Source of the DNA: Thermoplasmata archaeon
GTDB taxonomy: Archaea; Thermoplasmatota; Thermoplasmata; Lutacidiplasmatales; UBA184
Direction: 5' to 3'
Length of the DNA stretch: 64,000 bases
NCBI GenBank assembly: GCA_030037875.1
Contig: JASHPV010000007.1
Location: 10,041-74,040 of the forward strand
A program made the translations under genes and the position numbers. A model generated the notes under the pieces. The model was not told the DNA's origin, did no database searches, and worked only from the letters and a program-made list of their open reading frames with translations. Shown in pieces: positions 6,467-41,705 of the stretch. Each line of letters opens with the position of its first letter. Within the stretch, counting starts at the first letter, position 1.

Positions 6467-6468
6467 AA

Positions 6469-6492: not shown

Positions 6493-6517
6493 CGGTTCGA
6501 GGCCCCTGACAAATTGG

Positions 6518-6523
6518 TATATA
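6518..6523 (+). promoter_or_regulatory. TATATA box for the 6546 gene (leaderless-type spacing)
   Basis: ggTATATAcgg lies 23-28 nt upstream of ATG 6546. Confidence 0.35.
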
Positions 6524-6545
6524 CGGAGCACTCCATCGAACCCGT

Positions 6546-7037
6546 GTGGAGACCGAGCGGGACGGCGTAGACCACGCGGCCACTGTGCCCCCGCGGCTCT
6601 GGACCGTGGAGGAAGCCAACGCGCGCCTCAACGAGCTTCGGGCGTTGCTGCCGCAACTGAAAGCTTGGGCCACCCGCCTCGGCGTTGTCCACGAAGAGCT
6701 TCAGCGGCTCGCCTCCTTCTGGGGAAAAGAGCTCGAATCCAACGACAATCCGGACTTCGCCCTCCGCCACCGCTTGGACGAGGAGTGGCAGAGCTTGAGC
6801 CGGCGACTCGAACAGGAGGTCCTGCGCCTCCACGAAGACGGCATCGAGGTCAAGGACCTCGAGGTCGGTCTCGCGGACTTCTACGGTCGCTTGGAGGGGG
6901 AGGTCGTTTTCCTGTGCTGGCGACGGGGCGAGGAAGAGGTCGGATTTTGGCACCCGCTCCAGGGAGGCTACCGCAACCGGCGGCCCCTTCCCAATTCCCG
7001 AAAGGCCGCGCCGCGACCCCGCGGCGGCTCCGCGTAG
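6546..7037 (+). CDS. DUF2203-family protein (conserved hypothetical)
   Basis: N-terminal LWTVEEANARLNELRALLPQL resembles the DUF2203 signature. Acidic helical protein. TATA box at -25. Confidence 0.5.
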   Translation: METERDGVDHAATVPPRLWTVEEANARLNELRALLPQLKAWATRLGVVHEELQRLASFWGKELESNDNPDFALRHRLDEEWQSLSRRLEQEVLRLHEDGIEVKDLEVGLADFYGRLEGEVVFLCWRRGEEEVGFWHPLQGGYRNRRPLPNSRKAAPRPRGGSA

Positions 7038-7070
7038 GATTGCCCCGGCGCCGGTCGCCCGCTCGAACCG

Positions 7071-7976: not shown

Positions 7977-8603
7977 CCTGTTTCTTCACCCGTTCGGGGC
8001 ACTAAACAGTTCACCCGTGCCCTGGCCAAGCCTCACCTCCGGGTCATCGGGCTCGACGACGGCCCCTTCCTCCGGTCGGCCCGACGGGCCGCCCTGGTCG
8101 GCGTCGTCTTCTCGGCGCCCAACTATGTGGAAGGGATTCTCCGCACGTCCGTGGCGATCGACGGCACCGACGCCACGGATCGGATCCTCACGCTGCTCGG
8201 CCGTTCGCCATTCCTCGATGGGGTGCGAGCGGTACTTCTCGATGGCATTGCGGTGGGCGGGTTCAACTTGGTCGACCTCGACCGGCTGTACGAGAAGCTC
8301 CAGAGGCCCATCGTGACGGTCACCCGGCGGGCGCCCGATTTTTCCGCCATTCACGCGGCACTGCGGAAGTACTTTCCCCGAGACGCGCCGGCCCGGTGGC
8401 GCCTCGTCCGGGCTCATCCCCTCTTCCGCCTCGCGACCCCCGAAGGCAATCCGCTGCGCGTCAGCGCGGTGGGCTGCACACGGGCGGAGGCTTCCGTGAT
8501 GGTCCGGCGCACGACGGTCCGAGGGAATGTTCCGGAGCCGCTCCGTCTCGCCCGTCTCATCGCGCGCGCCCTCGTCCGGTCCGACACCGGCAAGCCGGCG
8601 TAG
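7878..8603 (+). CDS. DUF99/UPF0215-family protein (EndoV-like fold), N-terminal boundary unresolved
   Basis: Conserved RVIGLDDGPF motif near residue 55 of the ORF. DUF99 proteins normally begin ~8 aa before it, but no ATG/GTG/TTG lies in frame there. ORF start 7878 would overlap the divergent gene. Confidence 0.55.
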   Translation: MRTARVRGDERIRRVRRQPRPALRASKVDRRRHPVSSPVRGTKQFTRALAKPHLRVIGLDDGPFLRSARRAALVGVVFSAPNYVEGILRTSVAIDGTDATDRILTLLGRSPFLDGVRAVLLDGIAVGGFNLVDLDRLYEKLQRPIVTVTRRAPDFSAIHAALRKYFPRDAPARWRLVRAHPLFRLATPEGNPLRVSAVGCTRAEASVMVRRTTVRGNVPEPLRLARLIARALVRSDTGKPA

Positions 8604-8669: not shown

Positions 8670-8933
8670 ATGCGGTTCGGATGGGCGTATTGGCTCCTGG
8701 GAACGCTCCTTGCCATCACCGCGGTGATGCTGGTACCGTCGATACTGATCTCCGCATACAGCGCGGTCCCCCCGCTCCCGTGGACGTTCCTCGCCCTCTA
8801 CGGAACGGTCGCGTTCCTCTGCGCCCTCGGTGCGGCGCTCCTCCTCCGCAGAGGTCGGGTTCTTCTTCACGCGGATTCCATCATCGGTTTAAAGAGCGGG
8901 CACGACGATGAGAGCCGCGGGCCTGTAGCTTAG
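8670..8933 (+). CDS. Small two-TM membrane protein (hypothetical)
   Basis: 87 aa with two hydrophobic helices. Its 3' end overlaps the tRNA 5' end by 16 nt, which lowers confidence. Confidence 0.3.
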   Translation: MRFGWAYWLLGTLLAITAVMLVPSILISAYSAVPPLPWTFLALYGTVAFLCALGAALLLRRGRVLLHADSIIGLKSGHDDESRGPVA

Positions 8934-9027
8934 CTGGGACAAAGCACTGGCCTTCTAAGCCAGCGAACTCGGGTTCAAAGGCCGGCGGGAAGTGATCTTC
9001 CTTTCGGCGGAAACTCCCGACAGGCCC
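8918..9027 (+). tRNA. tRNA-Arg (anticodon TCT) interrupted by a ~35-nt intron in the T-loop (position 59/60 or 60/61)
   Basis: Hand-folded. Acceptor GGGCCTG/CAGGCCC is 7/7 WC. D-stem GCTT/AAGC. Anticodon stem CTGGC/GCCAG with loop CTTCTAA. T-stem TCGGG (8968-72) pairs CCCGA (9015-19) only after skipping 8979/80..9013/14. A14, G18G19, A21, U33, G53, C61 are present. Confidence 0.6.
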
Positions 9028-12583: not shown

Positions 12584-13753
12584 TCAGTTCATCCGCTCGA
12601 GAACGGTCACGACACTGGTCGCGCCGGTGCCGCCGACGTTGTGCGCGAGCCCCACCTGGGCGCCAGCGACTTGTCGCTCTTTCGCCTCGCCTCGCAATTG
12701 ACGCACCAGCTCGACGACTTGGGCCACTCCGACCGCCCCGAAGGGCCGCCCTTGGGCCTTGAGGCCCCCGGAGGTGTTGATCTGCGTGGGGCCCTTGCCG
12801 AAGAAGCGTCCGTCGCGCATCGCCACGCCGCCCTCCCCCTTCGCCACGAAGCCCAGGTCCTCGAGCGCGACCAGTCCCCCGATCGAGTAGGCATCGTCGA
12901 TCTCAGCGACCTGGACATCCGATGGCTTCCGGCGCGCTTGGCTGAAGGCGCGCTTCCCCGCGAACACCGTCGAATCCATCGTTGTGAGGTCGCGTCGGTG
13001 ATGCAGCGCCATCGTGTCGCAGGCGACCTGGCTCGCCGCGATCTTGACCGGCGTGTCCGTATATTTCCGTGCCCCCTCGAGTGGGCCCAGCAGCACCGCG
13101 GCGGCCCCGTCCGATAGCGGCGCGCAGTCGAGCAGGCCGAGCGGGTCCGCCACCATGCCGGAATTGACCACCTGGTCGAGGGTCACCTTGTTCCGAAAAT
13201 GCGCGAGCGGGTTCTTCGAGGCCATCTGGTGGTCATGCACCGGCAGCGCGGCCAGGTCTTCTCGTCGCGTCCCGTACTCGTGCATGTGTTTCCGAGCGAC
13301 CATGGCCCAGAGGGACGGCAGGGTGGCACCGAAGACGAGCTCCCACTCGGTATCCGCCGTCGCGTCGACGATCCGCGCCGCCTCGGTGTCGGAGACGTCG
13401 GTCATTTTCTCGGCGCCCCCCACAACGACGAAGTCGTAGGCGCCGGACGCGACGGCCAGATAGCCCTCGTGCAGCGCCATGGCGCCGGAGGCGCCACCGG
13501 CTTCGACCCGGATCGCGGGGAGATGATGGCCGGCCAGACCGGCGTAGTCGAGGATCAGGGGAGCGATGTGCTCCTGTTCGAGGAAGGCCCCGCTCGCCAT
13601 GTTGCCCAGGTAGAGTCCGCCCAGGTCGTGCGACCCCAGCTTTCCATCGACGAGCGCTTGGAAGCCGGCCTCGATACCGATCTCGCGGAACGAGTGGTCC
13701 CACAGCTCGCCGAACTTGGTCATTCCGATGCCCAGGATCGCCACGTCGCGCAC
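12584..13753 (-). CDS. Acetyl-CoA C-acetyltransferase (archaeal thiolase)
   Basis: GTG start giving MRDVAILGIGMTKFG... inside ORF 12584..14251. Thiolase motifs (NTSGG, GHNVGGTG). Upstream ORF portion is a GC artefact. Confidence 0.9.
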   Translation of the reverse strand: MRDVAILGIGMTKFGELWDHSFREIGIEAGFQALVDGKLGSHDLGGLYLGNMASGAFLEQEHIAPLILDYAGLAGHHLPAIRVEAGGASGAMALHEGYLAVASGAYDFVVVGGAEKMTDVSDTEAARIVDATADTEWELVFGATLPSLWAMVARKHMHEYGTRREDLAALPVHDHQMASKNPLAHFRNKVTLDQVVNSGMVADPLGLLDCAPLSDGAAAVLLGPLEGARKYTDTPVKIAASQVACDTMALHHRRDLTTMDSTVFAGKRAFSQARRKPSDVQVAEIDDAYSIGGLVALEDLGFVAKGEGGVAMRDGRFFGKGPTQINTSGGLKAQGRPFGAVGVAQVVELVRQLRGEAKERQVAGAQVGLAHNVGGTGATSVVTVLERMN

Positions 13754-13755
13754 GG

Positions 13756-14817
13756 TCAGGCCTCCCCCATGTCGATCTTGCCGCGGAACTTCGCGTACAC
13801 CGAGTAGGAGAGTTCGACGCCCCCGTCGAGGAAGAACTGGACCGGTAGCCCGATGGAGCGGTTGTAGCCTGCGAGGGCGTCGGTGACGGTCAGGTCGAAC
13901 GCGTCCGAGCCGGCACCGGACCCGTACCCCACCACAAGGATCCGTTCTCCGGGCTTCGCGTGATCGAGGACGTTGGCGAGGCCGATGAGCGCCGCGGCCG
14001 AGTAGGTGTTCCCGATGCGCGGGGTCACCATGCCGTACTTCATCTGATCGTCCGTGAAACCGAGCTGGGTCCCGATCCGGCGGGGGAACTTGCCATTGGG
14101 CTGATGGAACACGACGTGGGTGTAGTCCTTCGTCGTGGTGCCGGCGGCCTGGAACATCGATTTCGCGCACTCGCTGACGTGACGGAAGTAGGCGGGCTCT
14201 CCGGTAAATCGCCCCCCGTGACTCGGATAGCGCTGGCCCTCTCGCCGCCAAAAGTCCGGCGTGTCGGTGGTGTAGGACACGGTGTGGTTCACCGTGGCGA
14301 TCACATTCTCTCGTCCGATCACGAGCGCACCCCCGCCGGCGCTCGCGGAGTACTCGAGCGCGTCTCCCGGCGCCCCTTGGGACGTATCGGTACCGATCGC
14401 CACCCCGTACCGGATCATCTCCGAGCGAACGAGACCGAGACAGGTCTGAATGGCCGCGGTGCCGGCCTTGCAGGCGAACTCGTAGTCCGCGGCGGTGAGA
14501 TGCGGGGTCGCGCCGACGGCGTGGGCCACGATCGTCGCGGTGGGCTTCACGGCGTACGGGTGCGATTCGCTTCCCACGTAGAGCGCGCCGATCTCCTGAG
14601 GATCGATCTTCGCCCGGAGGAGCGCCACGCGCAGCGCTTCCGTGCTGATGGTGATCGTGTCCTCGTCCGGGGCGGGCACGCTCTTGCGCTCGATGTTCAG
14701 CCCTTGGCCCATCGCCGCTCCATCGACTCCCCAGACCTGACCGATCTCCGCGGGGGTAATCCGGTAGCGCGGGACGTACACTCCATAGCTCACGATGCCG
14801 GCGTTCATGTTCTGCAT
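13756..14817 (-). CDS. Hydroxymethylglutaryl-CoA synthase
   Basis: [20 protein letters not shown]... (alternative start 14808). Catalytic Cys region [12 protein letters not shown]. The HMGCS/thiolase/DUF35 trio is contiguous. Confidence 0.9.
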
Positions 14818-14824
14818 ATTTGGT

Positions 14825-15502
14825 TCACAACTCTTCCAAGCGACGAAGGACATCGGTGGGACCGAGCGATGTCGCGAGAAGGGGAATGTTCTCCACCTCG
14901 CTCAGGCGGACGGCGAGCGGGTCGATTCGACCCGGGTTCGCGAAGATCACGGCGGCGGGCTTCAGCGGATGCGCGCGGACCGCCACCATCGGAGAACGGC
15001 CGTACTTTACGTTGGAAAAAATCAGCGCACGCTGGGTCGTCCAACCGTACACCTCGACGAACCGGGAGGCGTCCATCGACAGGATGGCGCGCGGGGCATC
15101 CAAGAGCGTGTAGCCATGGATGTCTCGCATGAGGTCGACCGTGCTCACGGCCTTGGCGTCGAGGAGCTCGGCGACCGATTTGAGGGGAATCGCCACGGCG
15201 AACTCCCGCATCCCGAGGATCCCCTCCGTGTGGGGCCGGCTCCCCAGGCGTTGGGCGATTCGACGCCCATTCCGGGTGTCGATCTCGAGAAGCGCGTCCA
15301 CATAGTGCCGGATGAACGTCGCGCCCGGGCTGGCGCGTCGCTCGGCCTCGTAGTCGGAGATGACAGACGGCACCGTGTCGAGAGCCTTCGATAGTTCTCG
15401 CTGCGAGACCTGGAACCCCTCCCGCCATTTCCGGAGCGTTCGTCCGGGATGGGGAGAAAGGACCACCTCGCCCGCGATCTTTTCGCGCAGCTCGGCCGCC
15501 AC
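14825..15502 (-). CDS. Putative transcriptional regulator (N-terminal XRE-type HTH plus conserved C-terminal domain, COG1395-like)
   Basis: N-terminal [29 protein letters not shown] is an HTH_XRE pattern. ~150-aa C-terminal domain. TATA-like element upstream. Confidence 0.55.
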
Positions 15503-15522
15503 ACGCCGCCGACTTTCTGTGG

Positions 15523-15530
15523 CATATAAA
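15523..15530 (-). promoter_or_regulatory. TATA box (TTTATATG on minus strand) for the regulator gene
   Basis: Plus strand reads catataaa, 21-28 nt upstream of ATG 15502 (leaderless-type). Confidence 0.3.
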
Positions 15531-15818
15531 GACTTGGCCCTGGTTGTCGTCCGAAGGGTTCGACAGCCATCGAAGTCCTCGCCGAGAACTCAGGCTGGAT
15601 GGGAAGTGGACTGGGCGAGATTTCCCGGTGCCGGAGGAGACGCCTCCGGCCCCTTTGAACTCGCGACCTCTACCTTGCCAAGGTAGCGATCTTCCGCTGA
15701 TCTACCAGCCCACCGAGGCGGCGGAGTACGGCCGGACAATAAGCACTTCGCCGCAGGGGTGCCCGTTCGCTGCCGAAATGGAAGAGTTAATGGGGACGTG
15801 GCCCGTCCGCGCCCACCG

Positions 15819-16178
15819 ATGGCCGACGATAGCTCGCCCGGCGAGCCACTCGCGACCCTGCTCAAGGGTAGCCGAGACCTGCTCAATCCGGAAGAGATAG
15901 TCCGGGAAGCGATCCGGGACGTCGTCAAGGACGAGATTCGGCACCACCTGGAGAAGACCCTCAAGGACGACCCCAAGCTGGCGCACGACCTCCGTGAGGG
16001 CGTCCGCGGGCTGCTCGAAGCTCGAGCCATGGAATACGCCGCCTTGCTCCGGGTGGGGGCCCTTACGGCCCGTCTGGGACTGGCCGCGGTGCCGGAGGAG
16101 CTACGGAGCAAGCTCACCGCCGAGGTGGTCGAGCTCTTCAGCCGAGAACTAGGCCAGATCGTGGAAAAATCGCTCTGA
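15819..16178 (+). CDS. Hypothetical acidic alpha-helical protein
   Basis: Internal ATG (MADDSSPGEPLATLL...) of ORF 15759..16178. Charged helical composition. Ends 11 nt before the PAC2 gene, which suggests an operon. Confidence 0.4.
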   Translation: MADDSSPGEPLATLLKGSRDLLNPEEIVREAIRDVVKDEIRHHLEKTLKDDPKLAHDLREGVRGLLEARAMEYAALLRVGALTARLGLAAVPEELRSKLTAEVVELFSRELGQIVEKSL

Positions 16179-16188
16179 GCTCTCGCCC

Positions 16189-17001
16189 ATGTTATCCGAC
16201 GAGGTCCGCATCTACGAGATCAAACGGGTCGACGTGGAGGGCGCCATCGTCCTCGACGGATTTCCGTCGGTCGGCTTGGTGAGCTCGATCGTCGCCAATT
16301 ATCTCATCGACACGCTCGAGATGGAGCAGATTGGGATCGTCGAGTCTCCGTCGTTCCCGACGGTGTCTCTCGTGAGGGACGGCAAGCCGCAGCACCCGGT
16401 CCGCATCTACTCGGGCACCCCGCCGCAGGGACGGAACGGTCGGGGCGCGGACCGGATCGTGGCGTTCATCTCCGAGTTTCAGCCGCCGCCGAACGTGATC
16501 CATCCCCTCGCCACCGCCATCTTGAACTGGGTCCAGGAACAGCGATGCGGTCTACTCGTCTCGCCCGAAGGGCTGGTCGTGGAGCCCGCGCCGGGGACCA
16601 AGGAGCACCGGCGACCCACCAAGGTACCGGAAGTACGAGTCTACGGGATCGCGAGCACGCGACGAGCGCAGGAGCTGTACATCGAACCGAACGTGACCCC
16701 CTTCATGGAGGGCGTGATCACCGGGATCGCCGGGGTGTTGCTCAACGAGGGTCGACGTCGGGGGTTCGATGTCCTGACGTTCCTGGCCGAGGCCAACCCC
16801 GAGTACCCGGACGCCCGCGCAGCCGCCAAGATCATCGAGACGATAAACCACATTCTCCTCCGGTCGGCCCTCGACCCCGAGCCGCTGATCCACGAAGCGG
16901 AGCGGATCGAGCAGCAGCTCCTCACGATCCAGCGCTCGGCCCAGGAACACCCCCGACCCGAGCGACCGGCGACGCCGCAGTCCGCGCCGATGTACCGGTA
17001 G
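16189..17001 (+). CDS. PAC2/DUF75-family protein (proteasome-assembly-chaperone-like)
   Basis: N-terminal LDGFPSVGLVSSIVANYLIDTL...GIVES...PVRIY pattern matches archaeal PAC2-family proteins. Confidence 0.55.
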   Translation: MLSDEVRIYEIKRVDVEGAIVLDGFPSVGLVSSIVANYLIDTLEMEQIGIVESPSFPTVSLVRDGKPQHPVRIYSGTPPQGRNGRGADRIVAFISEFQPPPNVIHPLATAILNWVQEQRCGLLVSPEGLVVEPAPGTKEHRRPTKVPEVRVYGIASTRRAQELYIEPNVTPFMEGVITGIAGVLLNEGRRRGFDVLTFLAEANPEYPDARAAAKIIETINHILLRSALDPEPLIHEAERIEQQLLTIQRSAQEHPRPERPATPQSAPMYR

Positions 17002-17005
17002 CGGT

Positions 17006-18301
17006 CTACCCCGGGCGCTTCGGGCTGCGCGGGGCGGTTTTCCGTCGCGAGACCGCGGGAAGAGATTTCGCGTGGGTTGACGAAGCCGGGATCCGTTCGA
17101 CCAACTCTCGCACCCCGGTGACGAACGCGTCGATGTCCTTCGGGGAGGTGTAGAAGTAGAACGACGCCCGGATGCTCCCCGGGAGGCTCCGCTCACGGTA
17201 CCACGAGTGCACGCAGTGCATCCCCGACCGGACCATCACGCGATACCCCTCGTCCAGGAAGAGCGCCGCGTCGTTCGGGTCGACGCCGTCGAGCGTGAAC
17301 GAGTAAATGCTGGGCCGTCGGGCGGGATCCTCGGGACCGAGCAGGTGGACCCGGGGTTCGTCCGCTAGGGCCCGGGTGGCTCGCGCGTTGACCGACCGGT
17401 CATGGGCATCCACCGCCTCCAGCCCGACGTGTTCCAGGTACCCGAGCCCTGCCGCCGCGCCGAGCACTCCCGCGTAATTCTGGAGGCCGGCCTCAAACCG
17501 GTGCGGCGGCGGTCGTAGCTGATGCTCGGTCAGCGTGGTCCATTCCACCGTCTCTCCTCCCACGATGAGCGGGGAGAGTCGAGCCAGGCGTTCCGGGGCT
17601 CCTGCCAGGAGACCGGTGCCGCTCGGTCCGAGCATCTTGTGAAGCGACAGTGTGTAGAAATCGACGCCTAGCTCGGCCAGGTTCACGCGCTGATGCGGGG
17701 CCGCCTGGCAGCCGTCGATCAGCACCTCGGCCTTCTTCCGATGGGCCCGTTCCACGATTTCCCGCACCGGAAGGGATCGCCCATCGAGGTTTGACGTGTG
17801 AAAGAAGCTCACGAGGCGGACGCCCCGGTCGAGCTCCCGGTCCAGCGACTCCGCATCGAAGGTCCCGTCGGAAGGCAACCGGAGATGGGCGAGTTGAATG
17901 CCGCGCTCGGCGGCCAGTCGCTGCCATACGACGAGGTTCGAGTTGTGTTCCTGGTCCGTTACGAGGACGCGATCCCCCGGCTTCCAGTCCAGGCCCTGGG
18001 CGACGAGATTGATCCCCTCGGTGGCGTTTCGCAAAAAGACGATTCCGTTCGGCGATGGAGCGCCGAGGAACCGGGCGAACGCCTCTCGGGTCCCTTCGTA
18101 CCGGTGCCCCACCTCCTCGGCGAACCGGTGTAGGCTGCGACCCGCGCATCCCGGGTAGTCTGTGTAGTATTCTTCCACCGCGTCGAGCACCGCGCGAGGG
18201 ACCAGCGACATGCACGCGGAGTCCAGGTAGACCGGTGGTGGCATGTCCGGCGTGCCCGCGAGCGCCGGGAAATCCTTGCGCAAGTGTTCGAGATTCGTCA
18301 A
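17006..18301 (-). CDS. Cysteine desulfurase (class V aminotransferase, SufS/CsdA-like)
   Basis: PLP-lysine motif SLHKMLGPSGTG. Active-site region near SGMHCVHS. 431 aa. Confidence 0.85.
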   Translation of the reverse strand: MTNLEHLRKDFPALAGTPDMPPPVYLDSACMSLVPRAVLDAVEEYYTDYPGCAGRSLHRFAEEVGHRYEGTREAFARFLGAPSPNGIVFLRNATEGINLVAQGLDWKPGDRVLVTDQEHNSNLVVWQRLAAERGIQLAHLRLPSDGTFDAESLDRELDRGVRLVSFFHTSNLDGRSLPVREIVERAHRKKAEVLIDGCQAAPHQRVNLAELGVDFYTLSLHKMLGPSGTGLLAGAPERLARLSPLIVGGETVEWTTLTEHQLRPPPHRFEAGLQNYAGVLGAAAGLGYLEHVGLEAVDAHDRSVNARATRALADEPRVHLLGPEDPARRPSIYSFTLDGVDPNDAALFLDEGYRVMVRSGMHCVHSWYRERSLPGSIRASFYFYTSPKDIDAFVTGVRELVERIPASSTHAKSLPAVSRRKTAPRSPKRPG

Positions 18302-19500
18302 CCTCGCCCCTCCCCTTGGAGAGCGAGGGTGCCCGCCACCAGCGTCGCGGTCCCGATGACTAGCGCCGTTTCGGCGGGAAGGAATGTCGCACTGTGCGAG
18401 GAGGCCGTCATCGTGGGGGTCCTCACACCGAGACGGAGGAAAGTTCCCGGCACACGTTCGAGGTACCGGGCAAAGTCCTCGGCCCCCATCCCGGGGTGCT
18501 TGAGTTCCACGAGCCGGTCCTTCCCGAGCTCGACCCCCAGCGCGTCCACGACGCGTTGAGTGGCCGCTGGGTCATTGACCAGCACGGGATACCCATGTTT
18601 GTAACTGATGCTCGCCGAGGCTCCCATGCTGCTCGCGAGCAGCCGGACGCGCCGTCGGATCCACGCTTCGGTCCGCTGCTTGGTCTTCGGGTCCACGGTA
18701 CGAACCGTGCCCTCCAAGACGACCTCTTGCGGAATGATGTTGTGGCGCGTGCCTCCGTGGATCGTGCCGACGGTCACCACGACCGGGTCGACGGGGTTTC
18801 GGACCCGGCTCACCATCGCCTGAAGACCGGTGACGATCTCCGCCGCGGTGAGCACCGCGTCGGGGCCCTGGTGCGGCGTGGACGCATGACCGGGTGTTCC
18901 GTGGACCCGGATCACGAAGTGGTCCGGGGAGGCCATGAGGGCGCCTTTCTTCCAGCCCACTGAACCGAGGGGGACCTCCGACGCCACGTGCTGTCCGAGC
19001 ACGAAATTGACGCGAGGCTTCTCGAACACGCCCCGTTCGAGCAGCGGGAGCGCACCCCCTCGATTTCCCTCCTCCTCGGCCGGTTGGAAGATTAGCTTGA
19101 CCGAACCGCGCAGCCGGCCCCGGTTGTGCATCAGCACGTCGGCCGCCCCCAGAAGGCAGGCCATGTGCACGTCGTGGCCGCAGGCGTGCATCGTCCCGTC
19201 GAATCGGGAAGCGAAGGGGACGTGGGTCTCTTCGAGGATCGGGAGCGCGTCCATGTCGGCGCGGAGGGCCACCACGGGACCCGCGCGCTCCGACTCGATC
19301 AGGCCCACGACGCCGTTGAATTTGTTCCCGAAGGTCTGAGCCGGGATTCCGAGGCTCGCGAGGGCGCGAACCACCTTCTCCCGGGTTCGGGTCTCCCGGT
19401 TGGACAGCTCCGGTTCCCGGTGGAAATCCGCGCGCCACGCTCGGAGAGCGGGCAGCCGGCGCCGCGCCTCCCGGGTCCAATGGTTCGTTGCCCGGGCCAT
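18298..19500 (-). CDS. M20D-family amidohydrolase (N-acyl-amino acid amidohydrolase/hippurate hydrolase-like)
   Basis: Internal ATG (MARATNHW..., 19500) of ORF 18298..19590. M20 metal-binding motifs (HACGHD, EEEG). ATGA overlap with the SufS start. Confidence 0.85.
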   Translation of the reverse strand: MARATNHWTREARRRLPALRAWRADFHREPELSNRETRTREKVVRALASLGIPAQTFGNKFNGVVGLIESERAGPVVALRADMDALPILEETHVPFASRFDGTMHACGHDVHMACLLGAADVLMHNRGRLRGSVKLIFQPAEEEGNRGGALPLLERGVFEKPRVNFVLGQHVASEVPLGSVGWKKGALMASPDHFVIRVHGTPGHASTPHQGPDAVLTAAEIVTGLQAMVSRVRNPVDPVVVTVGTIHGGTRHNIIPQEVVLEGTVRTVDPKTKQRTEAWIRRRVRLLASSMGASASISYKHGYPVLVNDPAATQRVVDALGVELGKDRLVELKHPGMGAEDFARYLERVPGTFLRLGVRTPTMTASSHSATFLPAETALVIGTATLVAGTLALQGEGRG

Positions 19501-19651
19501 GACGTGGGGCTCGAGCGGTGCTGGTCTAATAACGGCCCCGTCGAGCCTTCGGCGGGACGCCAAGGCCCGTCGATGAAGGGGCGGCTCCAAGCCGAAAGCC
19601 TAAATTTCGTCCTAGTGAGCGGCGCCCGAGCGCCCCCGTTCCGGAGATTCT

Positions 19652-20221
19652 GTGCCGAATGGACTGGAGATTGCGGTAGCGGTCCAGGCGCTGCTCGCCA
19701 TCTGGATTGGCGTGCGCTCGTACGGCAGCTATCAGGGCCGGCTCTACTCCACCGGCCGGGTACTGATCTTTCCGGTCTTGATCCTCCTCGTGTACGCCGC
19801 GACGGAGCTCGAGACGATCGCTACGGTGCCGTGGGCGTTTCCGACCTGGACGTCGGTCGACCTGGTGGTCCTAGTCGCTGCGGCCCTCGCGACCCTGCCG
19901 ATAGCAAACCGCTTGGTTCGAGTCTCGCAACGCTCGGACGGGCAATGGTACTATCAGTACGGGATCGAATTGATCGGATTTTACCTCGCCCTATGGGTGG
20001 CCCGATTGGCCCTCGCCGCGTATTACGACCCGGCCTCGCTCGAGTTCGTTATATCGTCGACCGCCGCCCCCCTGTCCGCGGCCACCTCGGCCGTTCTCGT
20101 CCTCATCCAAGGCCTCTTCTCCGTCAGCTCCGGGCTGGTCATCGGTCGTGGCATCGGTACCTATCGGCTCCACCGACAGGCCGAGCGGCGCGCCGCCTCC
20201 GTGGTAGCTCAGGCCCGCTGA
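19652..20221 (+). CDS. Hypothetical polytopic membrane protein
   Basis: 189 aa with ~5 hydrophobic helices. Followed by a T-rich stretch (gagttttttcg, ~20322), a likely archaeal oligo-T terminator. Confidence 0.5.
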   Translation: MPNGLEIAVAVQALLAIWIGVRSYGSYQGRLYSTGRVLIFPVLILLVYAATELETIATVPWAFPTWTSVDLVVLVAAALATLPIANRLVRVSQRSDGQWYYQYGIELIGFYLALWVARLALAAYYDPASLEFVISSTAAPLSAATSAVLVLIQGLFSVSSGLVIGRGIGTYRLHRQAERRAASVVAQAR

Positions 20222-20222
20222 C

Positions 20223-20237
20223 TCCCCTCTCTCGGAA
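20223..20237 (+). repeat. 15-bp direct repeat CCCCTCTCTCGGAAC (copy 1), flanking a low-GC islet
   Basis: Exact 15-mer recurs at 21197..21211. The ~1 kb between the copies is visibly lower in G+C than its surroundings. Confidence 0.5.
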
Positions 20238-20354
20238 CCGGCTCGAATAGCGTTCGATCCTTGAGGAATGAGTGATCAACCGCAAGTTAGTCAATCGCGG
20301 TCGAGGTAAGAGTGAAAATAAACGGAGTTTTTTCGTTAACTTCACCGCAGGGTT

Positions 20355-21050
20355 ATGCCCGCCGAACTAGCCGGCCGCCGCCGTCGAGCCACCGTCGCAG
20401 TTATTCTTGTGGTGATTTTGGTTATCGCTTCTGTCGTGCTGTATGTTCAATTTGGGGTTCACTCATCTACAGTGGGCATAACGGCGTACGACGCGAACTC
20501 TACGGATATCGCGAACCTAACTTCGCTTCCGGGAACAGGCCATGTCAGGGTGCTCTACCTGAACTCCACGGCTTTCGCGAATGAGTCGGCGTACCCGAGT
20601 TCGACGTTGACCTTTTCGAGCATGATTGGGGCCTTCTATGTCGGCCACCCTTACAACTACTTCCAATTTTTCATTAACTTCAGCCTCACCGGACATTTCG
20701 CCCCCAACTTGCAGCCGGAGGAAATCACGATCTCGGCCAGCGACGTGGGGCCCTACAACAACTCTGCTGCGCTCTTCGGAATTGGGCAGCCCGGGTCCTT
20801 GGATAATCTCTCGACGCCCAACTCCATCCTTCAGTTCACCGGTAACAACTCAAGTGCCATTTCCTTTGACGTCGAAACTAGTTCCTCGGCAGGCTCAGAC
20901 TGGCATGGGTTCTCCCTGGAGAACTGGCGATACCAGTTCCTTCTCGGTTCGTACGCAGGCAACCACTTGCTTCGCCTTAACGCCTCGTTGCTCGGCCTAA
21001 GCCGCTCGGTCTGGATTCAACAAAGTGTCAAGATAATGGATGTTCAGTGA
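20355..21050 (+). CDS. Sequon-rich secreted/anchored protein with basic-then-hydrophobic N-terminus (possible class III/pilin-like signal)
   Basis: MPAELAGRRRRATVAVILVVILVIASVV... followed by >=10 N-x-S/T sequons (NST, NLT, NES, NFS, NNS, NLS, NAS). Encoded in the low-GC segment between the direct repeats. Confidence 0.5.
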   Translation: MPAELAGRRRRATVAVILVVILVIASVVLYVQFGVHSSTVGITAYDANSTDIANLTSLPGTGHVRVLYLNSTAFANESAYPSSTLTFSSMIGAFYVGHPYNYFQFFINFSLTGHFAPNLQPEEITISASDVGPYNNSAALFGIGQPGSLDNLSTPNSILQFTGNNSSAISFDVETSSSAGSDWHGFSLENWRYQFLLGSYAGNHLLRLNASLLGLSRSVWIQQSVKIMDVQ

Positions 21051-21196
21051 AGTAGAAAATGTACCGACCGGTCGTGTCAAGAAAGCGACGACCTACAGGA
21101 GCGGTGGCATGTGCGGTTCTCTTGGCCTCGGTTGGAATGATCGGGCTTTCGATTGGGAAGGAAACTGCCCGGGTATCTTCTCCCCTCGTCTCTCTG

Positions 21197-21211
21197 CCCC
21201 TCTCTCGGAAC
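21197..21211 (+). repeat. 15-bp direct repeat CCCCTCTCTCGGAAC (copy 2)
   Basis: Second exact copy, ~100 nt upstream of dnaK. See copy 1 at 20223. Confidence 0.5.
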
Positions 21212-21234
21212 TCACGGAATCTCCTTGAGTAGTC

Positions 21235-21242
21235 TTTTTATA
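21235..21242 (+). promoter_or_regulatory. TTTTTATA TATA-like box plus downstream inverted repeat GCGCCC-ttt-GGGCGC (21271..21285) in the dnaK 5' region
   Basis: AT-rich box ~70 nt upstream of the dnaK ATG. A 6-bp perfect inverted repeat lies in the putative leader. Confidence 0.3.
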
Positions 21243-21309
21243 GTAGTGAAAGCATTCTCCTGACGCTAAAGCGCCCTTTGGGCGCGACCTACAAAGAGGC
21301 ATCCCAGTT

Positions 21310-23211
21310 ATGGCGAAAATCATTGGAATCGACCTAGGAACGAGCAACTCGGCGGCGGCCGTCCTTGAGGGCGGGCGCCCCGTGATCATCCCGAGCGCGG
21401 AAGGCACGACCGTCGGTGGCGGAAAGGCCTTCCCGTCGTACGTGGCTTTCGCGAAGGATGGCCAGCTGATCGTCGGCGAACCGGCCCGGCGACAAGCGGT
21501 CTCCAACGCGCAGTACACGTTCACCGCGTTCAAGCGAAAGATGGGCACCGATTATCGGTACCGCGGACCGGACGGCAAGGAGTACACCCCCCAGCAGCTG
21601 TCCGCGTTCCTCCTCCAGAAGATCAAGCGTGATGCCGAGGCCTTCCTGGGCGAGAAGATCCAGAAGGCGGTCATCACCGTCCCTGCGTACTTCAACGACA
21701 ACCAGCGCCAGGCCACCAAGGACGCCGGCCAGATCGCGGGGCTCGAGGTCGTTCGGATCATTAACGAACCGACGGCCGCGTCGCTCGCGTACGGCCTCGA
21801 CAAGGCCGGGAAGTCGCAGAAGATCCTCGTCTTCGACCTGGGCGGTGGAACGCTCGATGTGACAATCATGGAGTTCGGCGAGGGCGTGTTCGAGGTCGTC
21901 TCGACCAGCGGAGACACCCAGCTGGGTGGGACCGACATGGACACGACGCTGGCCGACTACATCGCGGGAGAGTTCCGGAAGGAGTCGGGCATCGACATCC
22001 GGACCGACAAGATGGCGATGCAACGCGTCCGGGACGCCGCGGAGAAGGCGAAGATCGAGCTCTCCTCCACGCTGGAGACGCAGATCAATCTCCCCTTCCT
22101 CACCGCCACCAGCGAGGGCCCGAAGCACCTCGCCCTGACCCTTTCGCGAGCGAAGCTCGAAGAGCTCCTTCGGCCGCTCATCGACCGCTGTAAGGCCCCC
22201 GTCGAGCAGGCCATCTCCGATGGCAAGCTTTCGAAGGAGCAGATCGACCGGATCATTCTCGTCGGCGGCCCGACCCGGATGCCGATGGTACAGAAGTTCG
22301 TGGAACAGCTGATCGGTCGTCCGATCGAGCACGGCGTCGACCCGATGGAATGCGTCGCGATGGGCGCTTCGATCCAGGCCGGCGTGCTTGCCGGCGAGGT
22401 CAAGGACATCCTGTTACTGGATGTGACGCCCCTCTCGCTCGGCGTGGAGACGATGGGCGGCGTGTTCACGAAGCTCATCGAGCGCAACACGACGATTCCG
22501 ACGCGGAAGAGTCAGATCTTCACGACGGCGGCCGACAGCCAGAGCTCGGTCGAGATCAAGGTCTCCCAGGGCGAGCGGCCGATGGCTTCCGACAACGTGG
22601 CCCTAGGGAACTTCATGTTGACCGGCATCCCGCTCGCGCCGCGCGGTGTCCCCCAGATCGAGGTCTCGTTCGACATTGATGCGAACGGTATCCTCAACGT
22701 CTCCGCGAAGGACCTCGCGACCGGGAAGAAGCAGGGCATTACGATCACCGCCTCGACCAAGCTCTCGAAGGAGGAGATCGACCGGATGCTGAAGCAGGCC
22801 GAGCAGTTCGCCTCCGAGGACAAGAACCGGAAGGAGCAGGCCGAGACCCGCAACCGGGCGGAAGCCCTGACCTACGAGGCCGAGCGCATCCTGACCGACG
22901 CGAAGGACAAGATCCCGGAGGCCGACGCGCAGGCCGTGCGCGCCAAGGTCGAGGAGCTTCGGGCGGTCCTCGACTCCAAGGACCTCTCGGCCCTGAAGCA
23001 GAAGACCGACGAGCTGACGCGCGCGATCCACCAGGTCTCGCAGAAGCTCTACGAGTCGGCGCAGCAGGCGCCCCCTTCCTCGGGATCGCCCGAGGAGCCG
23101 TCGACGGGGCCGACCGAAAGCGGCGGTTCCTCGCCGCCGGGGAGCGGGCCGGTGGACGCCGACTTCAAGGTCGTGGACAAGCAGCCCGGCGACGAGAAGA
23201 CCGAAAGCTAG
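21310..23211 (+). CDS. dnaK: Chaperone DnaK (Hsp70)
   Basis: 633 aa. [26 protein letters not shown] and other Hsp70 signatures. No grpE or dnaJ adjacent. Confidence 0.97.
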
Positions 23212-23220
23212 GCCCGGTGC

Positions 23221-24327
23221 TCAGGCGCCGAGGTTCCCGGCCGGCCCGTCCCACGGCCGTGTCGGGGGCCCCACATAGCGCTCGGGGGGACGCACCACCC
23301 GGTTCTGGGCCACTTGCTCAAGTGCGTGAGCCGACCACCCGGCGGTTCGAGCGAGTGCGAAGGTCGCCGTGAAGAGCTCGCGGGGAAGGCCGGCACCCTC
23401 GAGCAGGACCGCGCCATAGAAGTCCACATTGGTGAGGAGCGGCTGGTCGGGCCGTCGCCGGGCCAACCGGTCGAGGGCTATCTCCTCGAATCGCCGGGCC
23501 AGTGCGTACCGAGCGGGCGCTGCGACTTCCTTGGCGTAGCGCCGCAGCAACGTCGCGCGCGGGTCCTCCACGCGGTACGTGGGGTGACCGAACCCAAAGA
23601 GCCGGCCCCGTTGGTCGAGCGTTCGGTCAACCCAATCCTCGACCCGGTCGATCGACCCGACGGCATCGAGCATCTCCAGCACCTCGGGGGGCGCGCCGCC
23701 GTGCAGCGGGCCCTTTAGCGTACCGAGAGCCGCGGACGCGGCCGATGCGAGGTCGGACCGAGTCGACAGGACGATCCGCAGCGCGAAGGTCGAGGCGGAG
23801 ATGCCATGGTCGGCGAGGAGAACGAAATATCGTTCGAGAGCCCGGATCCGTTCGGGGGCCACTCTGGGCCCCTGAAGCATCCACAGGTAGTTGGCCACAT
23901 GTCCAAGGTGGGGATCGGGATCCCGGGGCGCTGAACCGACGGCGCGCTGATGCAATCGGGCCACGAGCGTGGGGGACCGGGCAATGAGATCCAGCGCCTC
24001 GTTCACGGTGGGAGGATAGACGCGGGCGACGTCCCCCATCGCCGATACGGCGGTCCGGAACCCGTCGATCGGCGGCATGTCGGGAGGCAAGGCCTGGATC
24101 ACCCGCTCCAAATTTTCCGGCAATCCTCGTCGAGCCCGCAGTTCGGAACCAACCCCGGGCGCCCCGGGTTTTCCCGGAGGGGTCCCTCCCAGCAGGAGGC
24201 TCGCGGTCGCCTCGTAGCCCAGGTGCTCCGCCACATCCTCGATTCGATATCCTCGATAGGTGAGGATGCCGTGAGCCCCGTCGATGCCCGTGATCGACGT
24301 GTCCCCAAAACCGGATCGTTCCGTCAT
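23221..24327 (-). CDS. gltA: Citrate synthase (archaeal short form; 2-methylcitrate synthase not excluded)
   Basis: Internal ATG (MTERSGFGDTSITGIDGAHGILTYRGYRIEDV) of ORF 23221..24453. Catalytic GFGHPTYRVEDPRA and HGGA motifs. Confidence 0.9.
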   Translation of the reverse strand: MTERSGFGDTSITGIDGAHGILTYRGYRIEDVAEHLGYEATASLLLGGTPPGKPGAPGVGSELRARRGLPENLERVIQALPPDMPPIDGFRTAVSAMGDVARVYPPTVNEALDLIARSPTLVARLHQRAVGSAPRDPDPHLGHVANYLWMLQGPRVAPERIRALERYFVLLADHGISASTFALRIVLSTRSDLASAASAALGTLKGPLHGGAPPEVLEMLDAVGSIDRVEDWVDRTLDQRGRLFGFGHPTYRVEDPRATLLRRYAKEVAAPARYALARRFEEIALDRLARRRPDQPLLTNVDFYGAVLLEGAGLPRELFTATFALARTAGWSAHALEQVAQNRVVRPPERYVGPPTRPWDGPAGNLGA

Positions 24328-24451
24328 CGCGGTCCCGTGCCGTTCCCCCGATCGGGAGGCACCGGGGGGACACCCGGCTCTCGGTAAAGGAATCTCGGTC
24401 GTCGGAATGTCGGAAAGACTTATCCACGCTCCGTCGGTCCTTCGTCCCCTC

Positions 24452-24691
24452 ATGTCGACGCCTACCGGCTTGCTCGAGCGGGTCGTCGATCAACGGGTTT
24501 CCCTGCGACTCAAGGATTCCCGCGAACTGTCCGGGCGGCTCCTTGGGCTCGATGACCACATGAACCTGGTTCTTGACGAGGTGGAGGAGACCTCGAACGA
24601 GGGGTCCCGCCGCCTGGGGCGAGTGCTCGTACGCGGTTCGAACGTCATCAGCCTGACCGCCGCCTCCGGGTTGCTCCCGAAGCGGCACTGA
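24452..24691 (+). CDS. Sm-like archaeal protein (SmAP/LSm)
   Basis: Sm1/Sm2 pattern: VSLRLKDSRELSGRLLGLDDHMNLVLDEVEE...RRLGRVLVRGSNVISL. Alternative upstream ATG at 24407. Confidence 0.8.
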   Translation: MSTPTGLLERVVDQRVSLRLKDSRELSGRLLGLDDHMNLVLDEVEETSNEGSRRLGRVLVRGSNVISLTAASGLLPKRH

Positions 24692-24710
24692 TCCGCAGGG
24701 GGCCGTCGGC

Positions 24711-25397
24711 GTGACCGGCCGAGCGAGAGGCTTCCGTGCCAGGGTGGAGGAACTCCGGTTGCTCCGGTTCTTGGCGCACGGAGGCGCCGAACACAGTCCC
24801 GTCGAGATCACGTCTCGAGAGGTGGGCGAGTACCTCGACGTCAGCCAACAGGCCGCGGACCGGTACCTCGTCGAGCTCTCGAAGCAGGGATTGATTTCCC
24901 GGTCGCTCGGTGCCCGGAAGCAGCGACTGACGCTCACTCCGGCCGGGGTAGAAGTCCTGCGCAAGGAGTACCACGCGTACCGCCGGGTCTTCGAGGGGCC
25001 CGCTCGCTTGCGATTCTCCGGGCAAGTCACGTCCGGGCTCGGGGAAGGACGCTACTATCTGAGCCAGCCCGGATACATCGTCCAGTTCCAGGAGCGCCTC
25101 GGTTACACTCCCTATCCCGGGACGCTCAACATTCGAGTCGATCCCAAGGAGCTTCTCCGGATCGACGGGTTGCGCGATTGGGAAGGAATCCGGATCGATG
25201 GATTCCAAGCCAGCGGGCGAACCTTCGGCGGAGCCTCGTGCTACGGTGGCCGCATCAATGGCCGACCCTGCCATCTCATCCGACCCGACCGAAGTCATTA
25301 CCAGGACGTGGTGGAGCTCATCGCGCCCGAGTCCCTGCGCGAATCGCTCAGCGTCCACGACGGGGACACCGTATCGGTCGAGGTGGAGGAATCGTAG
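24711..25397 (+). CDS. ribK: HTH-fused CTP-dependent riboflavin kinase (RbkR-type regulator/kinase)
   Basis: GTG start. N-terminal wHTH. C-terminal archaeal RibK domain with YPGTLNIRV motif (MJ0056 family). Confidence 0.8.
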   Translation: MTGRARGFRARVEELRLLRFLAHGGAEHSPVEITSREVGEYLDVSQQAADRYLVELSKQGLISRSLGARKQRLTLTPAGVEVLRKEYHAYRRVFEGPARLRFSGQVTSGLGEGRYYLSQPGYIVQFQERLGYTPYPGTLNIRVDPKELLRIDGLRDWEGIRIDGFQASGRTFGGASCYGGRINGRPCHLIRPDRSHYQDVVELIAPESLRESLSVHDGDTVSVEVEES

Positions 25398-25398
25398 C

Positions 25399-26418
25399 AT
25401 GCCGGCGTCTGTCGCGCGGTCGATCGCTCAGGACCGCCGTCCTCCCCCGGCCGGCACGGCCTCTGCGAGCCAGTACGTGAACCAATGGACCGAGGCCGAG
25501 GCCCTCGGAACAGAACGGGTCCGGGCTTTCGTGCTGATTCTTCGAACCCGCGGTTGTTACTGGGCGGACGTGAAAGGTTGCTCGATGTGCGGGTACGCCA
25601 AAGATACGCTCGGACGTTCGGCTACTCCCGAAGAGCTCGGCCGACAGCTCGAGGCCGCGCTCCAGGTGTACCATGGCGAGCCGTACGTTAAGATCTACAC
25701 GTCGGGCAGTTTCCTCGATGACCGAGAGGTGGACCCGGACTCCCGCCAGCGTCTCGTCGAAGCCTTCAGTGGCCGTGCCCGCCGCCTGCTCTTCGAGACA
25801 CTGCCCGAGTTCGCGACGGCGGAGGCACTGAATCCCCTGCGGAAGGCCTTCTCCGGAGAGATCGAGGTGGCGCTGGGCCTCGAAAGCACCCAGCCAGAGG
25901 TGCTCCTCCGATACGTGAACAAAAATTCGCCGCCGGAGGCCTATCTCGACGCGGCCGACCGGGTCCACGGGCTCGGACTCCGGGCGAAGGGGTACCTCCT
26001 GTTGAAGCCCCCGTATCTGACCGAGCGAGAGTCGATCGACGATGTCGTGACGTCGGTTCGGGTGGCGGCCCCGCATTTCGATGCTCTATCGGTCAACCCG
26101 GTGCACATCCAGAACGGAACGGTGGTCGAGTGGCTCTTCCATCGGGGCCGTTATCGGCCTCCTTGGTTGTGGAGCCTCTCGGAGGCGATGCAACGCTCCG
26201 CGGCGCATCGCGGCACCACCCGTCTCGTGACGTTCCCGACGGCCGGGGGCCTCGCGCGCGGCCCGCACAACTGCGGAGTGTGCGACCGGGCCTTTCTCTC
26301 CGCATTGGAGGAGGCCTCTCTGTCACAGCGGTTTGAGGGCCTCGCCGCCTTGGCCTGCGCCTGCGGAAACGAGTGGCGAGCCGACGGCGCCCTGGAGCCG
26401 CTGGGGGTGGAGGCATGA
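25399..26418 (+). CDS. Radical SAM-like protein with non-canonical Cys cluster (TIGR01210/RaSEA-like family, tentative)
   Basis: Internal ATG 25399 (MPASVARS...) of ORF 25198..26418. Cys cluster RTRGCYWADVKGCSMCGY (C-x7-C-x2-C). TIM-barrel-like remainder. ATGA overlaps with both neighbours. Confidence 0.5.
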   Translation: MPASVARSIAQDRRPPPAGTASASQYVNQWTEAEALGTERVRAFVLILRTRGCYWADVKGCSMCGYAKDTLGRSATPEELGRQLEAALQVYHGEPYVKIYTSGSFLDDREVDPDSRQRLVEAFSGRARRLLFETLPEFATAEALNPLRKAFSGEIEVALGLESTQPEVLLRYVNKNSPPEAYLDAADRVHGLGLRAKGYLLLKPPYLTERESIDDVVTSVRVAAPHFDALSVNPVHIQNGTVVEWLFHRGRYRPPWLWSLSEAMQRSAAHRGTTRLVTFPTAGGLARGPHNCGVCDRAFLSALEEASLSQRFEGLAALACACGNEWRADGALEPLGVEA

Positions 26419-27221
26419 ATCTTGTCCCGAAGTTGTCTCCCCATACGGAAACGACGATCCATCAGTTCCTCCGGGCCCACCTCGCCCAAGCGGGAGCGGA
26501 GGGGCTCCTCGTCGGCCTGAGCGGGGGCATCGACTCCGCGCTGTGCGCCCGCCTGGCTCGGGACGCGGTGGGTCCCCAGCGGACCCAGTCGCTGCTCCTT
26601 CCGGACGCACCGTTTCCTGCGGCCCTGCGGGAAGAGGTGACGGAGTATGCCCACCATCTCGGGATTTCGTTCCGGATCGTCGACATCGAGGGCCCGGAAT
26701 CGGGATTCCGGGCCCTCTTCCCGGAGGTGACCGACCGCGTCAGTTTGGGCAATGTGAAGGCCCGGGTCCGGATGACCGTGCTGTACCTCTGGGCCCGGGA
26801 GCGTCATCTGCTGGTGGTCGGGACCGGCAACAAATCCGAGCTCCTGATGGGCTACTTCACGAAATGGGGAGATGGCGGGGTCGACCTTCTCCCGATTGGC
26901 GACCTCTACAAGACCCAGGTCCGGGAGCTCGCCGCGCAACTGGAGCTCCCCCGGTCGATGCAGCAGAGGCCTCCGACGGCCGGGCTCTGGGAGGGCCAGA
27001 CCGACGAGGAGGAGCTCGGGCTTCCTTACTCCGAGCTCGACCAGATCTTGTTCGGCCTGGAACAGCTCCGGACCCCGGAGGAGATCGCCGAGGCGACGCA
27101 CCTCCCGTTGGAACGCGTTCGAGCCGTTGAAGCGACCGTCGAACGTACGCGCCACAAGCGGCGCCCGCCTCCCATACCGAAGCTGGGGTTGCGAACGGTC
27201 GGGATCGACTGGCGCGAGTGA
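26415..27221 (+). CDS. nadE: NH3-dependent NAD+ synthetase
   Basis: Internal ATG 26415 (MNLVPKLSP...). PP-loop SGGIDS. Typical NadE length (268 aa). Confidence 0.9.
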   Translation: MNLVPKLSPHTETTIHQFLRAHLAQAGAEGLLVGLSGGIDSALCARLARDAVGPQRTQSLLLPDAPFPAALREEVTEYAHHLGISFRIVDIEGPESGFRALFPEVTDRVSLGNVKARVRMTVLYLWARERHLLVVGTGNKSELLMGYFTKWGDGGVDLLPIGDLYKTQVRELAAQLELPRSMQQRPPTAGLWEGQTDEEELGLPYSELDQILFGLEQLRTPEEIAEATHLPLERVRAVEATVERTRHKRRPPPIPKLGLRTVGIDWRE

Positions 27222-41656: not shown

Positions 41657-41705
41657 TCCGACGGGGATTTTCCGGGCGTCCCACCGGCGAGAAATTTGCC
41701 AAAGG

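Follow-up and report, generated by a model that had tools for sequence, protein, structure and literature searches.

A probable horizontally acquired one-gene islet upstream of dnaK in a Thermoplasmata archaeon, encoding a predicted surface glycoprotein of a previously uncharacterised family

Introduction

Integrated archaeal elements are typically bounded by att direct repeats, and tRNA genes are their usual target in archaea. Genomic islands that are swapped by homologous recombination are marked by peaks of substitutions, most of them synonymous, at their boundaries (Lopez-Perez et al. 2014, PMC4033161). The casposase of Aciduliprofundum boonei makes target-site duplications of 14-15 bp, and of 15 bp even at random sites (PMC5137440, PMC6614799). 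Here we describe a small low-GC islet that resembles each of these systems in part. It lies directly upstream of dnaK in a 64,000-nt stretch of contig JASHPV010000007.1 from a Thermoplasmata archaeon (hereafter the window, to which all coordinates refer unless stated otherwise). The islet carries one gene, ORF231, and is probably strain-specific and horizontally acquired.

A precise insertion between a membrane-protein gene and dnaK

The islet is enclosed by two exact copies of the 15-mer CCCCTCTCTCGGAAC, both on the plus strand. The left copy (20224-20238) starts 2 nt past the TGA stop codon (20219-20221) of the upstream gene, and the right copy (21197-21211) lies 23 nt 5' of the dnaK TATA box. 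The initial annotation of the window had recognised this pair as exact and present twice, and only its first coordinate, given as 20223, needed correction. No further match to the 15-mer was found in the window with up to two mismatches allowed. The insert body occupies 20239-21196 (plus strand) and measures 958 bp, or 973 bp with one repeat copy. Taken alone, the repeat pair is not significant, and its statistics are weak. Exact 15-mer pairs number 22 in the window as a whole and 5 at distances within 2 kb, compared with third-order Markov expectations of 16 and 1.3, and at least two matches to CCCCTCTCTCGGAAC arose in 9 of 100 shuffles. It is the comparison with empty sites in relatives that identifies the pair as a true target duplication and not a coincidence.

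The closest relative, L001, is ~98% identical to the window over 13675-27194 (13.5 kb). In L001 the upstream membrane-protein gene is followed directly by dnaK, with a gap of 115-121 bp. The alignment of L001 to the window ends at 20239 and resumes at 21202, and the two pieces overlap on one motif copy. Removing the 973 bp from the window leaves a 121-nt spacer with a single motif copy, which is equal in length to the L001 spacer and colinear with it. The L001 copy, CTCTCCTCTCGGAAC, is orthologous to the left copy of the window. Between the two window copies all positions agree (15/15), and each matches the L001 copy at 12 of 15 positions. The site was also empty in six further lineages (L002/3/4/19, L005, L018, L029, L030 and L031), so that the insert body is missing from seven related lineages in all. 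The spacer between the two genes in the empty lineages was 76-170 bp long, and the motif CTCCCTCTCGGAA is also native in the L029 spacer. Since both junction flanks are orthologous to the empty site and the 15-bp target is duplicated, the islet is a precise insertion of 973 bp with a 15-bp target duplication. The integration-type footprint that the initial annotation had proposed was thus confirmed by the empty sites in seven lineages and the one motif copy in L001. The presence/absence variation among related genomes that it had pointed to was likewise found, the site being filled in the window population and empty in L001 and the other six lineages.

Both junctions were recovered at 100% identity in the assembly L007 (GCA_030050175.1) and in the Logan assemblies L008 and L009, and the left junction was covered by L010 and L011. 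Altogether, the insert was present at 100% identity in five independent assemblies. An assembly chimera was rejected on the grounds that both junctions are identical in three independent assemblies and the left junction in two more. A metagenome scan with the upstream protein returned distant relatives only (~50%). One of the more distant genomes, the Thermoplasmata metagenome-assembled genome (MAG) L021 (JASHPT010000109.1), carries a different 2.8-kb block of four genes (5562-8375 of that contig) at the same junction. Gene content has thus changed repeatedly where the membrane-protein gene meets dnaK. The four genes of the L021 block have host GC, and were assigned from their translations as methyltransferase-like, HxlR-like regulator, ArsC/LMW-phosphatase-like and MIP-family channel genes.

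The two flanking genes served as synteny anchors. The upstream gene (19652-20221, plus strand) encodes a 189-aa multi-pass membrane protein whose relatives match DUF1453 (PF07301). The gene is conserved in Thermoplasmata MAGs, and the window carries a divergent allele of it. The downstream anchor is dnaK (Hsp70; 21310-23211, plus strand), with its start at 21310. The dnaK TATA box, TTTTTATAG (21235-21243, plus strand), and its flanks are kept in all relatives, with one base variant in L002. The insertion left this core promoter intact, and is for that reason probably neutral for dnaK.

The dnaK 5' leader (21232-21312, plus strand) is itself highly conserved in L002, L005, L018, L021, L029, L030 and L031. 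An invariant UCUC is predicted to pair with a Shine-Dalgarno-like GAGG just 5' of the start codon. Between these two elements lies a GC hairpin, GCGCCC-ttt-GGGCGC (21272-21286), in which one pair changes on both sides. The leader may act as an RNA thermometer or as some other element of heat-shock control, a candidate role with weak covariation support and no Rfam match. No Rfam family was found anywhere in 19500-21500.

As had been stated initially, tRNA genes do not adjoin the islet. Rfam gave tRNA-like matches at 8919-8977 (plus strand, 59 nt) and, at threshold, at 15656-15711 (minus strand, 56 nt), neither of which was called by ARAGORN. Conversely, ARAGORN called a tRNA-His at 49894-49984 (plus strand, 91 nt) that Rfam did not list at its gathering score. 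These three tRNA-like loci may be intron-containing or split archaeal tRNA genes.

Base composition and internal features of the islet

The segment 20151-21401 is the sole stretch of the 64 kb with a G+C content (GC) below 0.58 in 300-bp windows, with a minimum of 0.50 against a mean of 0.666. The insert of 973 bp has a GC of 0.539. Within it, ORF231 (20355-21050, plus strand) has a GC of 0.545, with 0.51 at first codon positions (GC1) and 0.68 at third positions (GC3). The neighbouring genes have GC1 of 0.63-0.73 and GC3 of 0.76-0.90. The enclosed DNA is thus AT-richer than its surroundings, as initially described, and the codon-position values showed that the dip is not confined to promoter DNA. 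Two native genes of the window that are also rich in N-glycosylation sequons (41649-48317 and 48321-49148) keep GC3 of 0.87-0.89. Promoter DNA or the amino-acid composition of a glycoprotein was therefore rejected as a full explanation of the dip, given the GC3 of 0.68 in ORF231.

Three further features were noted in the islet. A possible archaeal TATA-like box, AAAATAAA (20315-20322, plus strand), was picked out by reading the sequence 33-40 nt 5' of the ORF231 start. Downstream of ORF231, a second reading frame of 57 aa, ORF57 (21059-21232, plus strand), the only other one in the insert, has a basic and hydrophobic N-terminus and crosses the right repeat. Its GC3 is 0.57 and its coding status is uncertain; neither homologues nor a Pfam match above threshold were found. 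ORF57 was rejected as a truncated paralogue of ORF231, since the two sequences are not similar. Just 5' of the right repeat lies a degenerate third copy of the target, CTCCCCTCgTCTC (21180-21192, plus strand), which corresponds to CTCCCCTC-TCTC at 20222-20233. All 12 of the 12 target bases match, with one G inserted.

Divergent tract flanking the insert

The insert lies within a tract (19501-21227, ~1.7 kb) that stands out against L001 in mismatch density and synonymous divergence (dS). Mismatches occur at about 1 per 80 bp up to 19480, and then become dense (~15%) over 19502-20228. To the right of the insert there are 5 mismatches in 21212-21227, after which the identity returns to ~98%. The left edge (19501) is abrupt and coincides with the start codon of a divergently transcribed M20 peptidase gene, and the right edge lies 16 nt beyond the right repeat. 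Compared with L001, the upstream membrane-protein gene has a dS of 0.476 and an omega of 0.16, and six flanking genes have dS of 0.04-0.10. The synonymous divergence of the tract is thus ~8 times that of its flanks. Positive selection was rejected as the source of the divergence of the upstream gene on the basis of these omega and dS values. With an omega of 0.16, and a dS of 0.476 against 0.04-0.10 in the flanks, the patch would therefore be an imported divergent allele under normal purifying selection. Judged by its substitution pattern, the tract is best read as the footprint of homologous recombination between lineages.

In a tree of the upstream protein, the window and L001 alleles were sisters, with the longer branch leading to L001. 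The most divergent part of the tract is the intergenic region between the M20 peptidase and membrane-protein genes (19501-19651), with ~25% mismatches and an indel relative to L001. The promoters of both genes would therefore have been swapped along with the membrane-protein allele.

ORF231 and its family

ORF231 encodes a protein of 231 aa with 10 N-X-S/T sequons. Its N-terminus, MPAELAGRRRRATVAVILVV, reads RRRRA-TVAV and continues into a hydrophobic stretch. The reading frame, its RRRR-A-T hydrophobic N-terminus and its count of at least 10 sequons were therefore as initially annotated. In shuffles of the ectodomain the number of sequons was 3.3 +/- 1.5, and none of 2000 reached 10. The public NCBI gene call (P0001, 20550-21050) is a protein of 166 aa which, after a reassigned initiator Met, corresponds to residues 67-231 of ORF231. 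This indicates an internal start, by which the membrane anchor and the first two sequons are left out. In the Logan and MAG gene calls the protein has its full length of 231 aa.

No match to ORF231 was found in Pfam, PHROG or the PDB sequences, and a word-indexed search of 5.8 billion proteins returned only the protein itself. An exhaustive HMMER search was more productive. It returned P0030 (E 4e-42, full length, 43% identity) and ~25 weak matches, mostly of 210-245 aa, and a profile search added members down to 204 aa. The family has at least 27 representatives, and its proteins measure 204-245 aa. Its alignment shows one or two basic residues followed by a hydrophobic helix. The domain that follows is sequon-rich, with motifs around NATTYxNQ..SSTL and GHFAxNLHP and a C-terminal G-T-H...L.G block. 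The gene contexts of the family vary, and no mobility genes were seen in them. The P0030 gene lies at 2400-3200 of L012, a Logan SRR28211853 contig, with a GC of 0.55-0.57 against 0.66-0.71 around it and a GC3 of 0.66. No direct repeats flank it in L012, and its gene context differs from that of the window. Members of the family that moved recently may share a low GC.

The AlphaFold2 model of ORF231, built on the family alignment, had a predicted local distance difference test (pLDDT) of 80 and a predicted template-modelling score (pTM) of 0.72. It consists of a helix (residues 5-35) followed by an all-beta sandwich, and is less confident in a loop at ~140-180. The nearest solved folds were leukocidin/alpha-hemolysin toxins, whose beta-sandwich cap fold the model shares. 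Foldseek ranked NetF, CytK, NetB and Hla at E ~1e-5, with TM-scores of only 0.13-0.33. Sequence identity to toxins of the leukocidin/alpha-hemolysin family (for example 8jx2, 1xez, 6u33, 8rj8 and 9rsm) is 5-10%. None of 17 family members had a Pfam match that would place them in the Leukocidin family, and a PDB sequence search with the family profile gave nothing at E up to 10. The toxins are secreted as soluble monomers, whereas the archaeal family has a predicted N-terminal membrane anchor, which argues against ORF231 being a secreted monomer. Overall, the family is previously uncharacterised, with a predicted hemolysin-like fold and no Pfam or PDB sequence match. We read ORF231 as a signal-anchored (N-in, C-out) surface glycoprotein, predicted to comprise an anchored beta-sandwich with 10 N-glycosylation sequons.

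The initial annotation had seen in the N-terminus an archaeal type IV pilin or other class III signal peptide. There is a resemblance to archaeal type IV pilins and archaellins, which share with ORF231 a short charged N-terminus, a hydrophobic helix, a beta-sandwich and many sequons. ORF231 begins with a charged stretch and R-A followed by ~21 hydrophobic residues, and the N-terminal helix joined to a beta-sandwich gives a pilin-like outline. However, a FlaFind-type class III pattern ([KR][GA] plus a hydrophobic stretch) matched 0 of 17 family members. R-A precedes the hydrophobic stretch only in ORF231 and P0030, so a peptidase site of the kind found in pilins and archaellins is not conserved in the family. 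None of the fold matches of the model was an archaeal pilin or archaellin, and the globular domain lacks a known fold of either kind. Pilus-assembly genes (PilB/PilC-type ATPase, platform, prepilin peptidase) were not found among the ~45 ORFs scanned in the window. The pilin assignment did not survive these comparisons, and we regard it as hardly credible.

A gene with an STT3/AglB domain lies within the same window, which indicates that the organism has a glycosylation enzyme. It is a 2223-aa ORF (41649-48317, plus strand) combining an STT3/AglB oligosaccharyltransferase N-terminal domain with CarboxypepD_reg-type repeats and 38 sequons. Directly after it follows a 276-aa ORF (48321-49148, plus strand) with 10 sequons. 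The region 41649-49148 looks like a native N-glycosylation and surface-protein locus.

Route of insertion

In the explanation that we favour, horizontal acquisition of a strain-specific islet, the cassette would have been put in by an activity supplied in trans. A possible route, which we prefer tentatively, is a Campbell-type event in which circular or episomal donor DNA with an identical 15-mer would have recombined with the chromosomal 15-mer in one conservative crossover, leaving attL/attR-like repeats. In its favour are the degenerate target copy at the right end of the insert and the lack of an inverted relation between the insert ends. When one end was aligned locally with the reverse complement of the other, the score was 9 (shuffles, 7.7 +/- 1.5), and no terminal inverted repeats were found. 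The circle junction would read ...GTCTCTCTG-CCCCTCTCTCGGAAC-CGGCTCGAATAG.... The filled or empty allele would then pass between lineages by homologous recombination in the flanking core genes. The product would be a type II (N-in, C-out) membrane protein with a beta-sandwich ectodomain of ~195 aa, heavily N-glycosylated by the host AglB. It might add a variable component to the cell surface, with a role in adhesion or in altered recognition by viruses or neighbours.

Several observations weigh against this explanation or parts of it. No recombinase, transposase or Cas1 was found among the ~45 ORFs of the window, so the inserting activity is one that we infer entirely, and the 15-mer lacks the dyad symmetry typical of tyrosine-recombinase cores. 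The donor was not found either, as no relative of ORF231 above 43% identity exists among the 5.8 billion proteins. All sampled members of the family have a GC below that of their hosts, partly from amino-acid composition, and the gene of the closest homologue, P0030, likewise lies in a region of low GC, so that the gene family itself accounts for some of the GC dip. The upstream-protein tree is compatible with a recombinant window as well as with a recombinant L001. Finally, the expression, glycosylation and surface location of ORF231 are predictions. Searches of PHROGs, BFVD, INPHARED phages, PLSDB plasmids and IMG/VR, with the proteins or the two insert ends, gave no match that would indicate a virus or plasmid origin. 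Neither a second copy of the insert or its ends, nor a further copy of the motif, nor a paralogue was found in the window or the fetched loci.

Other routes can be set against the conservative crossover. The islet might be what is left of a larger integrated plasmid or provirus whose own integrase acted at a 15-bp att core and from which internal deletion later removed nearly everything, the integrase included; this is a version of the crossover route itself. The perfect direct repeats around low-GC DNA and the short second ORF crossing the right repeat are in keeping with such a history. However, no virus- or plasmid-like gene is left, and the ORF231 family was unmatched in PHROGs, BFVD and the phage, plasmid and IMG/VR collections. 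The target is an intergenic spacer and not a tRNA gene, the nearest tRNA-like match being 4.5 kb away. ORF57 would have about the same length (54 aa) in the circular form, and thus is not an obvious split integrase. We consider a remnant of this kind unlikely. A small chance can also be given to microhomology-guided illegitimate insertion, either by template switching during replication or repair or by homology-facilitated illegitimate recombination. A foreign template would have been copied from after GGAAC, and a return 15 nt upstream would have created the duplication. The right end of the insert, CTCCCCTCgTCTC (21180-21192), resembles the target CTCCCCTCTCTC and could have guided the switch back, and the long divergent homologous DNA that adjoins one side of the insert is a possible anchor. 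The failure to find a recombinase or inverted repeats also fits this scheme. Microhomology joins, however, normally sit inside the shared bases and leave one hybrid copy, not a degenerate copy and a perfect 15-mer. It would also be unusual for such events to produce a clean 15/15 duplication in which neither junction shows loss or filler.

The length of the duplication brings a Cas1-family casposase into consideration. Such an enzyme (or another transposase) might have acted in trans to integrate non-casposon DNA at a staggered cut, the 15-bp repeat being the fill-in duplication. Exactly 15 bp is the size made by the A. boonei casposase, and some casposon families target the 3' ends of protein-coding genes, much as the duplication here begins 2 nt past a stop codon. 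A. boonei requires CC at +1/+2, which is how the target begins, and positions -15 to -9 (TCAGGCC) match TCAAATC at 4 of 7 positions; both of these agreements are post hoc and weak. The insert termini fit less well. Terminal inverted repeats are lacking, the terminal pentamers match at 2 of 5 positions, and the 3' ends CTCTG and AGCCG are unlike each other and unlike the TCCCC of A. boonei. Cas1 and PolB genes were absent from the scans of the insert and window, and a degenerate third target copy inside the insert is not expected from target-site duplication. We therefore rate a casposase as rather improbable. A "gene-length spacer acquisition" by a casposase in trans is a highly speculative idea, as is, separately, the view of the ORF231 family as the first archaeal membrane-tethered relatives with the leukocidin/alpha-hemolysin fold. 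It is also conceivable that no insertion took place, and that ORF231 is ancestral and was lost from the relatives by repeated deletion between direct repeats. Deletion between short direct repeats leaves exactly one copy, as in the empty sites, and either genome may be the recombinant in the tract. Nonetheless, this would take several independent identical losses, across seven empty lineages including the sister L001, compared with one gain. The GC3 of ORF231 is foreign, and chance is unlikely to have placed a pair of exact 15-mers right where the low-GC DNA begins and ends. Moreover, the copies agree fully with each other and yet differ from the L001 copy at three positions. Ancestral presence with repeated loss is accordingly very improbable.

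An insertion sequence or miniature inverted-repeat transposable element (MITE) was rejected, since there are no inverted repeats and neither the window nor the fetched loci hold a second copy of the insert or its ends. As for integron cassettes, no sizeable imperfect palindrome was seen near the right end and no integrase in the window; no dedicated attC model was run. A casposon, an integrase-bearing element and a pilin gene were also rejected as identities of the islet, a defining feature of each having been looked for and found lacking.

Comparison with known systems

If horizontal acquisition is correct, the islet is a base-pair-resolved case of an uncultivated archaeon gaining a lineage-specific surface protein, in which the filled and empty alleles, the target and the recombination tract are all visible. 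It also provides the first description of a protein family with a predicted signal anchor and a sequon-rich beta-sandwich of hemolysin-like fold that has no Pfam or PDB sequence match. A perfect 15-bp duplication with neither end symmetry nor a recombinase, together with an uncharacterised family of hemolysin-like fold, makes the locus mildly unusual. If a casposase did act here, Cas1-type integrases would be linked to gene gain, and the 3' ends of host genes could acquire new genes through casposase activity.

Casposons are Cas1-solo, self-synthesising transposons. The host of the islet belongs to Thermoplasmata and is usually assigned to one phylum with A. boonei. With casposons such as that of A. 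boonei the islet shares a 15-bp duplication, a location at the 3' end of a gene and a target starting with CC. Unlike casposons, it lacks terminal inverted repeats as well as genes for a casposase and a family B DNA polymerase (PolB), and its ends match neither each other nor TCCCC. Its length of 1 kb also sets it apart from casposons, which have been described as "large transposons" (PMC5137440, PMC6614799). Like the att-bounded archaeal plasmids and proviruses, the islet has identical direct repeats around DNA of foreign composition at a precise site. Unlike them, it has no integrase gene, tRNA target or virus or plasmid genes, and comprises only 973 bp.

Flexible genomic islands differ from the islet in being multi-gene clusters, in contrast to one gene on ~1 kb. 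The perfect 15-bp target duplication of the islet is not a product of homologous recombination alone, and the raised divergence extends over ~740 bp on one side and only ~16 bp on the other. The likenesses are nevertheless close. As in flexible islands (Lopez-Perez, Martin-Cuadrado and Rodriguez-Valera 2014, PMC4033161; the cell-wall island of Haloquadratum walsbyi, PMC4535781), presence and absence alternate among very close relatives. The cargo is a predicted exposed, glycosylated surface protein unaccompanied by mobility genes, and substitutions, most of them synonymous, peak sharply at the boundary (dS 0.476, omega 0.16). Taken together, these features suggest that the locus is in kind a small additive flexible islet with a surface-glycoprotein cargo, moved by homologous recombination, of a kind already well known in bacteria and in Haloquadratum.

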